Below, piece after piece: positions 38,245-41,531 of a stretch of DNA of 64,000 nt. The first letter of the stretch is position 1. Every line of letters begins with the position of its first letter. The notes under the pieces are model-generated. The model was given only the letters and a program-made list of their open reading frames with translations. It made no database searches and was not told the DNA's origin. A program made the position numbers and the translations under genes. The stretch comes from Candidatus Lustribacter sp. (lineage in GTDB: Bacteria; Vulcanimicrobiota; Vulcanimicrobiia; Vulcanimicrobiales; Vulcanimicrobiaceae): contig OZ255842.1 of assembly GCA_965277805.1 (NCBI GenBank), positions 4,768,001 to 4,832,000 on the forward strand, read 5' to 3'.

Positions 38245-39903
38245 ATGCTGCGCACTGGCGACCGGACGCAAGAGCGCCTCGCCCTGCTGGTTCGCGCGGG
38301 CGAGATGTTTCATCGTTCCCTCGAAGTCGAGGAAACGCTGGATAACGTCGCCCGGATGGCCGTCGAGTCGTTCTCCGACTTATGCTTGTTCGACTTGATC
38401 GACGAGCATTCAGACCGCCTCTACGTGACGGCCGGCGCCCACCGCGATCCCTCGATGGACGTGGTGCTCAAAAACGTCGGATCGTCGATTTTGTACGATA
38501 CGGAACTCGGCATCCATCCCGCCGTGCGGGTTTCGCAGTCGGGCAAGCCGTTCTTCGTTCCGGTGTTCGATGAGGCCGCGATCCATCAGCATGCAGCGTC
38601 GGGAAACCATGCCGCGTTCATGCGAAAAATGGGTTACCGGTCGAAGATCGTCGTCCCCGTCATCGCACAAGAACACATCTTCGGTGCGCTGAGCTTCGTG
38701 CGCACGGCCGACACCGTACCGTTCGACGAACAAGACGTCGATGCGGCGCAGGAACTCGGCCGGCGTGCCGGGCTGGCCGTCGCCAACGCGAAACAATTTC
38801 ATCGCGAACAGCACGTCGCCGCAACATTACAGCGTGCATTTCTGACGCAAGATTTTCCCGACCGCGAGAGGCTCGGTTTCCACGCCATCTACCGGCCGGG
38901 CAAAGGCGATGCCGAACTCGGCGGCGACTGGTACGACGCGTTCACCGTTGCCGACGGGTCCACGGTGATTACGATCGGCGACGTCACGGGTAAAGGCATC
39001 GAGGCCGCGCGCCTGATGGTGCAGTTACGGCAATCCGTGCGCGTGGGCGCATCGATCGACCCGGATCCCGGCGCCGTGTTACGGATCGTGAACGAGACGC
39101 TGCTGCTCGACCGCAGCCAAGCGATTGCGACGGCGTTTATCGGCTCGATCGCTCCCGGCGGCCGCACCGTGCGCTATGCCTCCGCCGGCCACCCGCCGGC
39201 ATTTTTGCGCCGCGACGACGGCACGCTGTTGCAGCTTTCCGGTTCCTCGCCGCCGGTGGGCATTCAAACCGGACTGACGTTCGATACAACGTCCCTGACG
39301 ATCGACGAACCCGCGACGCTGGTCTTGTACACGGACGGCGTAACCGAAGCGACGCGTGACGCGATCGCGGGCGAAGCCACGCTGCGCGCCGTCCTCGAGA
39401 GCAGTGCGTTCGGCGTTGCGGCCAATCCGGCGCGATTCGTCGAACGTGCCGTGGGCCGGAATCCATCGCAGGATGACGTCGCGATCATGACGGTTCGATT
39501 CGGAGATCGCCAGACGTTCTGCCAATGGGATTTTGCCGATCCCGCCGCGGCATACGCGATCAAAGGGAGCATCTTCGCGGCGCTCCGAGCGGTCGCGGAT
39601 TTTAGCGCCGAACAAGAACAAAATCTGCACGTGATCTTTAGCGAGCTCGTCGGCAATGCGGTGCGTCACGCACCCGGGGCCATGAGCCTTTCGATCTCGG
39701 CGCCGGGCGGGCGGCCGTGCTTGCACGTGATCGACGATGGGCCGGGATTCAGCCGGCGCCCGCAACTCCCGAACGACGTGTGGGCCGAGTCAGGGCGCGG
39801 ACTCTTTCTGATCTCGGCGCTGGCGGAAAAGCTGTCCATCGAACCGCTGGCAGGGTACGGTACGTACGTGAGCGTCGAATTGCGCTTTCAACCGCGTAGC
39901 TAA
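38245..39903 (+). CDS. GAF + SpoIIE/PP2C phosphatase + HATPase_c (anti-sigma kinase-like) protein
   Basis: GGDWYD, IGDVTGKG, SAGHPP, LYTDG, DDVA; ELVGNAVRH, DDGPG, ESGRGL. Confidence 0.92.
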   Translation: MLRTGDRTQERLALLVRAGEMFHRSLEVEETLDNVARMAVESFSDLCLFDLIDEHSDRLYVTAGAHRDPSMDVVLKNVGSSILYDTELGIHPAVRVSQSGKPFFVPVFDEAAIHQHAASGNHAAFMRKMGYRSKIVVPVIAQEHIFGALSFVRTADTVPFDEQDVDAAQELGRRAGLAVANAKQFHREQHVAATLQRAFLTQDFPDRERLGFHAIYRPGKGDAELGGDWYDAFTVADGSTVITIGDVTGKGIEAARLMVQLRQSVRVGASIDPDPGAVLRIVNETLLLDRSQAIATAFIGSIAPGGRTVRYASAGHPPAFLRRDDGTLLQLSGSSPPVGIQTGLTFDTTSLTIDEPATLVLYTDGVTEATRDAIAGEATLRAVLESSAFGVAANPARFVERAVGRNPSQDDVAIMTVRFGDRQTFCQWDFADPAAAYAIKGSIFAALRAVADFSAEQEQNLHVIFSELVGNAVRHAPGAMSLSISAPGGRPCLHVIDDGPGFSRRPQLPNDVWAESGRGLFLISALAEKLSIEPLAGYGTYVSVELRFQPRS

Positions 39904-39915
39904 AGGAGGCATATT

Positions 39916-40509
39916 TTGGATCGGGTGCTCCTCGTATGGTCGGACGTCGTTTGACCGTTTTGTTATCTCGGCTCGGTCTGGGTCGAAGAAGCGGCAAAGA
40001 AACTCGGCGTCACAACGCGGTGGCTGCCGTTCGAATTGCATCCTGAGGTGCCGCCCGAAGGCGCCGACAAGCCGTTTTCGGACGACGAGTGGCCAATGGT
40101 TCGCGCGCGGCTGATCGGTTTGGCGCAACGCGTCGGGCTGCCGATCGATCCGCCGCGGCGCAACGCCAATTCGCGGCTGGCGCTCGAGACGATGGAACTG
40201 GTGCGTTCGCGCGCCGGCGATGATGCGGCCGCCAGTTTCCATCACGCCGTTTCGCGCGCGTTCTTCGTCGAGGGCGCGAACGTTGCCGACATGGGCCTCA
40301 TCGCAGCCGAAGCGGCGGCATTCGGCATTGTGAAGGTCGACGTGGAGACGGCGTGGCAGCAGCATGACTTCGCCGGGGCCGTGGATGCGTCGATCGCGGC
40401 GTCGCGCGCGGCCGGCGTGCGGGGCGTGCCCGCCTACGGTTGGCCGGGGCAGCGCGCGATCAGCGGCATGATGGAGCCCGGCCAGATCATCGCAGCGCTG
40501 GGGGAATGA
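39916..40509 (+). CDS. DsbA/FrnE-family thiol-disulfide oxidoreductase, predicted selenoprotein (UPFC)
   Basis: AAGGAGG SD, TTG start, MDRVLLVWSDVV-TGA-PFCYLG...WLPFELHP in frame with track ORF 40036..40509; GVRGVP cis-Pro motif. Confidence 0.82.
39955..39994 (+). promoter_or_regulatory. bacterial SECIS-like hairpin
   Basis: Upper stem TCGGCTC/GGGTCGA with loop GGTCT (39975-39979); lower stem CCGTTTT/GAAGCGG; directly 3' of the TGA. Confidence 0.7.
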
Positions 40510-41531
40510 GGTGGGCGGCACTCGCGGTCGCTTCGGTGGGCGCCGGTTTTCTCGCGCAGGCCGGGCACGTTCCGGCAGCATGGCTGATCGGGCCGATGAT
40601 CGCCGCAATCGTTGCAGCAATCTCGGGATTCGGCCGAACGCTGCCGCGCTGGACGCTTGCCGCGCCGCAGGGCGTGATCGCGGTGACGATCGCACAGGTC
40701 TTCACGCTACCGGTGCTCGGTGAAGTCGCGCGCGACTGGCTGCCGATTCTCATCGTGGTCGTTGCAACGGTCGTCGCCGCCGGCACGGCGAGTTGGCTGC
40801 TCGCGCGCTACAGCCCGATCTCGGCGGCGACTGCCGCGTGGGGTTCATCGCCCGGCGCATCGGTGACGATGATCGCGCTCTCGGCCGAGTTCGGGGGCGA
40901 TCCGCGCGTGGTCGCGTTCATGCAGTATCTGCGCGTGACGCTGGTCGTGCTGTCGGCCTCGACGGTCGCGCATGTCGTGTTGGCGCATTCGCATGCGGTC
41001 GCCGCGCCGGCAGCGCCCGGGACGCAACCGTTCGCGCTCGTTCCGTTCGTTGCGACCTTCGCGTTTGCCGTCGCGGCTGCGTTCGCCGGGCGCATCTCGC
41101 GCGTTCCCGGTGCTCAGTTCATCTTTCCGCTGATCGCCGGCGGCGCGCTGCACGTCGCCGGGCTCTTGCCGATCGACGTGCCGTGGTGGCTGCTCGATGC
41201 GGCGTACCTCGCGGTGGGTTGGACGATCGGACTCGCGTACACGCGCGAGATCTTGCTGTTTGTCTGGAGCGTGCTGCCGACGCTGCTGCTCTCGACGCTG
41301 GTGTTGCTTGCAATGTGTGCGCTGGCGGGAGTGTTGCTGGTCGTGCTGGTGCACGTCGATCCGCTCACCGCGTATCTTGCGACGACGCCGGGCGGCCTCG
41401 ACTCGGTGTCGATCATCGCGCTCGGCAGCGGCAGCAACGTCGCGCTGATCCTCGCGATCCAAACGTTGCGGCTGTTCGCGGTCGTTGCCAGCGGCCCGCC
41501 CTTGGCAAAGCTGATCGGCCGCATCGCGTAA
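40506..41531 (+). CDS. AbrB family membrane protein (putative ammonia monooxygenase family)
   Basis: PAAWLIGPM, SPGAS, VAFMQYLR, TPGGLD; ATGA overlap with the upstream gene. Confidence 0.88.
   Translation: MRWAALAVASVGAGFLAQAGHVPAAWLIGPMIAAIVAAISGFGRTLPRWTLAAPQGVIAVTIAQVFTLPVLGEVARDWLPILIVVVATVVAAGTASWLLARYSPISAATAAWGSSPGASVTMIALSAEFGGDPRVVAFMQYLRVTLVVLSASTVAHVVLAHSHAVAAPAAPGTQPFALVPFVATFAFAVAAAFAGRISRVPGAQFIFPLIAGGALHVAGLLPIDVPWWLLDAAYLAVGWTIGLAYTREILLFVWSVLPTLLLSTLVLLAMCALAGVLLVVLVHVDPLTAYLATTPGGLDSVSIIALGSGSNVALILAIQTLRLFAVVASGPPLAKLIGRIA

Follow-up and report, generated by a model that had tools for sequence, protein, structure and literature searches.

Could a gene whose active site is interrupted by a stop codon encode an intact oxidoreductase? 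The question is raised by a locus in a 64,000-nucleotide stretch of Candidatus Lustribacter sp. DNA (contig OZ255842.1, positions 4,768,001 to 4,832,000), hereafter the window, whose own numbering is used for the locus. An initial annotation made from the letters alone noticed that an open reading frame (ORF) listed from 40036 continues upstream through a single TGA, and proposed that this codon is read as selenocysteine (Sec). From comparative analyses we conclude with high confidence that positions 39916-40509 constitute one intact gene for a cytoplasmic, FrnE-like enzyme of the DsbA family, the nucleophilic residue of which would be Sec, inserted by SelB and a selenocysteine insertion sequence (SECIS). 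The reading is based on the conservation of the TGA and of a hairpin behind it, the genome's set of Sec machinery genes, the fold of the product and the consistency with a formate dehydrogenase gene (FdhA) of the same genome. The elements of the locus are the following.

39903-39909, forward strand: Shine-Dalgarno-like AAGGAGG, separated from the start codon by 6 nt, read directly
39916-40509, forward strand: full coding sequence (CDS) of the putative Sec-containing DsbA/FrnE-like oxidoreductase, TTG start (39916-39918), 197 amino acids plus TGA stop (40507-40509)
39952-39954, forward strand: in-frame TGA, codon 13 (U13), which opens the UPFC redox motif (39952-39963)
39960-39994, forward strand: putative bacterial SECIS hairpin, from minimum free energy (MFE) folds and conservation across homologues
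40036-40509, forward strand: truncated ORF of 157 amino acids, TTG start, from the table-11 ORF list

The sequence observation of the initial annotation is confirmed, as the AAGGAGG motif, the 6-nt spacer, the TTG at 39916 and the TGA at 39952-39954 are all present, and the table-11 list likewise starts the truncated ORF with a TTG at 40036. The stop codon of the upstream gene (39901-39903) overlaps the AAGGAGG. The TGA at codon 13 is the only one within the frame and lies in the context WSDVV-U-PFCYLG, after which the frame stays open up to the TGA stop at 40507-40509. With the TGA read as U, the product begins LDRVLLVWSDVV-U-PFCYLGSVW. Orthologues start at the same position, with ATG in the loci L032 and L034 and GTG in L031.

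Of 61 related genomes, 20 contain a match. Fifteen matches, with identities of 55-99%, hold exactly one TGA, which tblastn puts at the same codon in all 15, and two distant paralogues show CPWC at this place. Classification was possible for 102 of 108 loci obtained from genomes and metagenome contigs: 97 carry TGA (54-99% identity), two TGT (L049 and L087) and two TGC, the latter being the distant CPWC paralogues, and one is misaligned (L118). These loci are not all independent, some contigs having been fetched twice, and comprise 66 distinct 54-nt sequences and 75 distinct CDS; moreover, one of the two scan patterns demanded a Cys codon, so that the ratio of Sec to Cys forms among them should not be read as a frequency. 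An even sample of the phylum, made of species-representative genomes, contained the orthologue in 67 of 401 genomes (two of the 67, G254 and G366, are unpublished), distributed over 15 of 116 genera and three families of one class. The TGA is present in all 66 matches that cover residue 13; two stop-free matches start at residues 15 and 35.

The rare Cys forms point to the same codon. L049, on a metagenome contig, is a close orthologue of 86% identity in which, in the region of its codon 21, TGT stands for TGA. Among the database proteins listed, 7 of 120 cover 97-99% of the query and all seven have Cys at position 13; L049 itself is such a full-length Cys protein, and its DNA reads TGT. Homologues thus differ between TGA and Cys at exactly this codon, and in relatives the TGA is retained together with the hairpin. 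The other 113 of the 120 listed proteins are N-terminally truncated, covering 69-89% of the protein, and begin at differing downstream codons (for example P0005, P0026, P0055 and P0062), which bears out the expectation of the initial annotation that standard gene calling would shorten the gene.

Alignment of 16 sequences revealed that W8, D10, V11, P14, F15, C16, Y17, L18 and G19 are invariant, and synonymous codon changes occur at S9, V11, F15, C16 and Y17. Residues invariant on both sides of the TGA, encoded by codons that vary synonymously, indicate that translation runs across it. This bears on the possibility that the gene is a pseudogene, its TGA due to a nonsense mutation or to an error in the assembly. 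A lone in-frame stop is indeed typical of a fresh pseudogene, and gene callers treat the locus as one. However, the same TGA recurs in 97 of the 102 classified loci and in every covering match of the phylum sample, with conserved residues on either side, and the wide spread of identities excludes copies of one contaminating sequence. An assembly error is further opposed by a contig of the sequencing run X1 that is identical to the stretch (0 differences), though X1 is possibly the source sample; in a comparison of four runs, confined to assembled contigs, no other letter is found at 39952-39954 among the matches listed. We therefore give a pseudogene almost no chance, and return to an intact gene.

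The product of the full frame matches the Pfam family DSBA (PF01323) with an E-value of 8.1e-22 and 78.4 bits, against a gathering cut-off of 25.6. The match covers residues 5-187, so the domain spans the TGA. A profile search of the protein against NCBIfam assigned no family at E-values up to 0.01. Its redox motif U13-P-F-C16 is of the UxxC type and invariant in the 16-sequence alignment. The only sequence relatives in the PDB are entries of FrnE (DR_0659) from Deinococcus radiodurans, a cytoplasmic disulfide oxidoreductase/isomerase (E 7.5e-10, residues 7-196 aligned on 16-216). The FrnE segment WSDIACPWCYIG aligns on WSDVV-U-PFCYLG, and the TGA codon matches the first Cys of CPWC.

An AlphaFold2 model built from the 16-sequence alignment has a predicted local distance difference test score of 94.6 and a predicted template modelling score of 0.90. 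It shows a strand at residues 4-9, a helix at 14-30 (helix 1) and a second strand at 33-38. In this model helix 1 is capped by residue 13, the arrangement of oxidoreductases with a thioredoxin fold. The top Foldseek match is FrnE (5cnw, E 4.2e-11), with a query-normalised TM-score (TMq) of 0.85 and a root-mean-square deviation of 2.7 Å; the FrnE likeness put forward by the initial annotation is thus seen in both sequence and fold. Next after FrnE comes SCO1869, followed by the group of HCCA isomerase and kappa-GST, YjbH and DsbM. Chains of periplasmic DsbA are far weaker matches, with TMq values of 0.5-0.6.

The model also allows the proposal of a downstream start to be weighed. The true start might lie beyond the TGA, for example at the in-frame TTG at 40036, with the upstream part a decayed remnant and the hairpin either a side effect of codon conservation or a regulatory structure at the 5' end; the public records do begin at various downstream codons. 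Yet the 157-residue product would lack strand 1, the active site with its redox motif, helix 1 and strand 2, and the 'starts' vary from record to record. In addition, residues 8-19 are conserved with synonymous variation, and the strong Shine-Dalgarno motif stands before a start codon conserved at 39916. We regard a downstream start as very improbable, and the TTG at 39916 as the start of the gene.

The protein shares with D. radiodurans FrnE a DsbA-like fold with the motif at the N-terminus of helix 1. It differs in having Sec, as we read it, in place of the first Cys, and identity is only about 25%. FrnE is a 260-residue chain aligned only up to residue 216, whereas the present protein ends at residue 197 and lacks the C-terminal extension. 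That extension presumably carries the second Cys pair of FrnE, as the PDB entry title 'C239S mutant' hints; here C16 is the only cysteine. The comparison suggests a protein that works as the core of FrnE does, short of being a complete FrnE. With periplasmic DsbA of the Escherichia coli type it has the Pfam family and the overall fold class in common. In contrast to that enzyme, it has a different active-site motif and no signal peptide; sequence and model agree that a hydrophobic N-terminal leader is missing, strand 1 beginning at residue 4.

Directly downstream of the UGA the transcript can fold into the hairpin TCGGCTC-[GGTCT]-GGGTCGA described in the initial annotation, located at 39968-39974, 39975-39979 and 39980-39986. 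Its lower stem pairs 39960-39964 with 39990-39994 and its upper stem 39966-39974 with 39980-39988; the core of 7 bp (39968-39974/39980-39986, UCGGCUC-GGUCU-GGGUCGA) is contained in the MFE fold of 39946-40010. The apical loop GGUCU (39975-39979) starts 20 nt after the UGA and has a G among its first bases. A published account places the apical loop of bacterial SECIS elements 16-37 nt from the UGA (PMC10778597), and the distance found here falls in this range. Across the 66 distinct sequences, standard pairs occupy 90.4% of the cells of the 14-pair helix, as against 31-56% in controls with the 3' partners shifted by 1-3 columns. The variable bases of the hairpin lie in the loop, the main forms of which are GGUCU and AGUUU. 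In the Cys form L049, two changes (GGATCCAG) in the 3' arm break the pairing, as expected for the decay of a SECIS once Sec has been replaced.

The E. coli fdhF element also contains GGUCU, as the initial annotation had stated: in the K-12 genome (NC_000913.3) codon 140 is the UGA, and the five bases begin 18 nt behind it, in a hairpin that likewise lies within the ORF just after the UGA. The stem sequences of the two elements are unrelated. The bulged U of the fdhF element has no obvious counterpart here. As a further observation on the loop, the change from G to A at alignment column 24 (39975) mostly accompanies a change from C to U at column 27 (39978), with L033 (AGUCU) as an exception; an A at column 24 can form an extra A-U pair that closes a 3-nt loop.

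The genome is represented by a single contig of 5.53 Mb (C1) that is 95% complete by marker genes. All four components of the Sec machinery, selA, selB, selD and tRNA-Sec, were found in it, each with a match above the curated cut-off. They are listed here together with a further gene that carries an in-frame TGA.

C1:4941254-4941343: tRNA-Sec, 75.8 bits, called SeC with anticodon tca by ARAGORN
C1:4921418-4922734: selA, 481.9 bits
C1:4921418-4924596: span of selA and the directly following selB, the latter with 303.5 bits over the frame
C1:3930552-3931469: selD, 379.8 bits
C1:3158410-3161439, reverse strand: FdnG-type formate dehydrogenase alpha subunit (FdhA), 983 bits over the frame

The selA-selB pair lies about 90 kb beyond the end of the window and the tRNA-Sec gene about 17 kb further, with selD elsewhere. 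A second match to the tRNA-Sec model (C1:2855678-2855765, reverse strand, 47.4 bits) is just at the gathering score and is probably a long-arm tRNA, not a second tRNA-Sec.

FdhA contains one in-frame TGA at C1:3160986 (reverse strand) in the context ARI-U-HSATVPG. It is followed by the hairpin GGUGCCC-GGUCU-GGGUGCC, whose loop starts 18 nt after the UGA, and FdhA is a second selenoprotein gene of the genome. A genome-wide scan found 18 sites that join a TGA with a GGTCT-loop hairpin of at least 5 pairs located 12-29 nt downstream. Five of these have an ORF context, and among the five FdhA and the oxidoreductase show the strongest coding signal on both sides. A broader scan reduced 21,709 TGA sites with an ORF context to 427 with a coding-like GC content at third codon positions, and these to five that also have a hairpin and a Cys nearby. 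Three candidates, at C1:1991083, 3521605 and 3420918, were rejected because longer ORFs on the opposite strand (590, 609 and 323 amino acids, respectively) enclose them; for those at C1:4749806 and 4648488, composition was the only ground for dismissal. Beyond the oxidoreductase and FdhA, no further credible Sec gene was found in this bounded scan, which is blind to C-terminal Sec, to Sec without a nearby Cys and to unusual SECIS elements and does not amount to a complete selenoproteome. The initial annotation had suggested that the selenoproteome of the lineage is under-reported; this is borne out as mis-annotation of the DsbA-like family and not as many hidden genes, FdhA being the only further one found in the bounded scan.

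Beyond this genome, selA was detected in 337 of the 401 sampled phylum genomes (13 of the 337 are unpublished), representing 99 of 116 genera. It was found in none of the 11 genomes of one genus (g53) and in none of the two of another (g5). Use of Sec therefore looks nearly phylum-wide, with few clade-level absences. A comparison of the two lists by eye showed selA in 63 of the 67 genomes that carry the TGA form.

Several points weigh against a Sec-encoding UGA and have to be set beside this evidence. The case for selenium incorporation at the UGA, and for expression of the gene, is comparative. The folding energy of the hairpin is ordinary (z = -0.9), as 39 of 200 shuffled sequences fold at least as well, and an Rfam scan of 39800-40200 gave no match at E-values up to 10. 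One pair (39967-39987) is a C-A mismatch in the window, and the conserved residues YLGSVW fix much of the stem. Covariation is limited to a C-G to U-A double change at one pair in two sequences (L069 and L102) and is not significant, 116-337 of 500 shuffles equalling the observed values on the covariation measures. The Cys form L087 keeps the hairpin arm intact. Among the 75 distinct CDS, normalised codon entropy is lower at the stem codons L18-G19-S20-V21 than in any other of 85 four-codon windows, and the six testable hairpin codons have an entropy of 0.45 against 0.66 for the other 77 (one-sided Mann-Whitney p 0.047), a modest result that is indicative only since the sequences are kin. Finally, selA was not found even at a loose threshold in four of the 67 orthologue-bearing genomes (G242, G270, G281 and G366).

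The significance of the hairpin hence lies not in its energy but in its conservation among homologues, the reduced synonymous change and the identity of its loop with that of FdhA. The four genomes without a selA match are incomplete metagenome-assembled genomes (MAGs), 83-91% complete. For tRNA-Sec, G270 has a clear match (73.2 bits), G281 is borderline, G366 narrowly misses the cut-off and G242 shows no match above it. These MAGs do not contradict the Sec reading.

The same data bear on whether read-through of the UGA inserts another residue, either because a near-cognate tRNA supplies Trp or Cys or because TGA has been reassigned throughout the lineage. The identity of the inserted residue is, after all, deduced, and three incomplete MAGs with the TGA form show no clear Sec machinery. 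However, the gene itself terminates with TGA, so TGA still acts as a stop in this genome, and the Sec machinery here is complete. In alignments the catalytic Cys of the homologues and of FrnE falls at this position, and the apical loop is identical to those of FdhA in this genome and of fdhF in E. coli. We consider insertion of a residue other than Sec unlikely, with a small chance of being correct. The proposal of the initial annotation that this organism recodes UGA as Sec is supported by the machinery, by the alternation in homologues and by the retention of both the TGA and the hairpin.

Based on these comparisons, we propose how the gene would be expressed and how its product may act. The UGA at codon 13 would be recoded during translation: SelB carrying Sec-tRNA(Sec) would bind the in-frame hairpin, with its GGUCU loop 20 nt downstream, and deliver Sec to the ribosome. 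The product would carry U13-x-x-C16 at the N-terminus of helix 1 in a thioredoxin fold with an inserted helical domain. Most likely the enzyme would cycle between a selenol/thiol and a selenenylsulfide state and thereby reduce or isomerise disulfides in cytoplasmic substrates. FrnE performs the equivalent chemistry with two cysteines.

The neighbouring genes are as follows.

38245-39903, forward strand: upstream gene, 552-amino-acid protein with GAF, SpoIIE-type PP2C phosphatase and HATPase_c_2 (anti-sigma-kinase-like) domains, by Pfam
40506-41531, forward strand: downstream gene, AbrB-family membrane protein (PF05145), Pfam E 1.9e-82

The ATG of the AbrB-family gene (40506-40508) overlaps the TGA stop of the oxidoreductase in the sequence ATGA, which suggests translational coupling of the two genes. 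Beyond it lies a gene for an NMT1-type binding protein. Clustering of the ORFs flanking 99 loci revealed no common partner beyond eight close loci (87-99% identity), and the largest cluster of flanking ORFs is the antisense shadow of the AbrB gene. Since the neighbours are conserved only in close relatives, they give no functional clue.

The initial annotation stated that DsbA-like selenoproteins are a described family, and three publications indeed catalogue them (PMC1088965, PMC13188914 and PMC9312934). The 2005 study of the Sargasso Sea metagenome introduced DsbA-like proteins (COG2761, UxxC) as a selenoprotein family not described before (PMC1088965), such proteins were noted in a few sequenced Deltaproteobacteria and Clostridia (PMC1794560), and 'DsbA-like protein (form 1), PF01323, UxxC' is listed in recent reviews (PMC9312934, PMC13188914). 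The present protein shares with form 1 the Pfam family, the UxxC motif with Sec first and a SECIS within the ORF with a G in the apical loop; Cys homologues of form 1 are widespread, and the likeness is judged by family, motif and published descriptions. It differs from the described members in its host, Candidatus Eremiobacterota (Ca. Lustribacter and related genera). A full-text literature search, which did not extend to supplementary tables, found no relevant paper pairing Eremiobacterota or WPS-2 with selenocysteine or selenoproteins. The DsbA-like UxxC kind is thus already known, and what is new is its placement in Ca. Eremiobacterota.

The finding leaves the knowledge of Sec decoding and of the DsbA-like family unchanged. 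It corrects a gene held publicly almost only as truncations devoid of the active site, which affects functional inference in many Eremiobacterota MAGs. It also documents that an uncultured phylum, for which we found no published selenoproteome, uses Sec, with the machinery for it and two selenoproteins or more. The C-closed GGUCU loop 18-20 nt after the UGA provides a lineage-specific signature usable for annotating the selenoproteins of the phylum. Going further, the distribution of the TGA form raises the tentative idea, which we hold at somewhat less than even chances, that the FrnE-like clade is a near-obligate selenoenzyme of the Ca. Eremiobacterota class containing this genome. If so, a dominant uncultured phylum of soil and peat would be a broad and so far undescribed user of selenium, in which at least two enzymes, FdhA and a cytoplasmic oxidoreductase of the selenenylsulfide type, would maintain the Sec trait. 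Since its SECIS loop is shared with fdhF, E. coli might be able to express the native gene as a selenoprotein.

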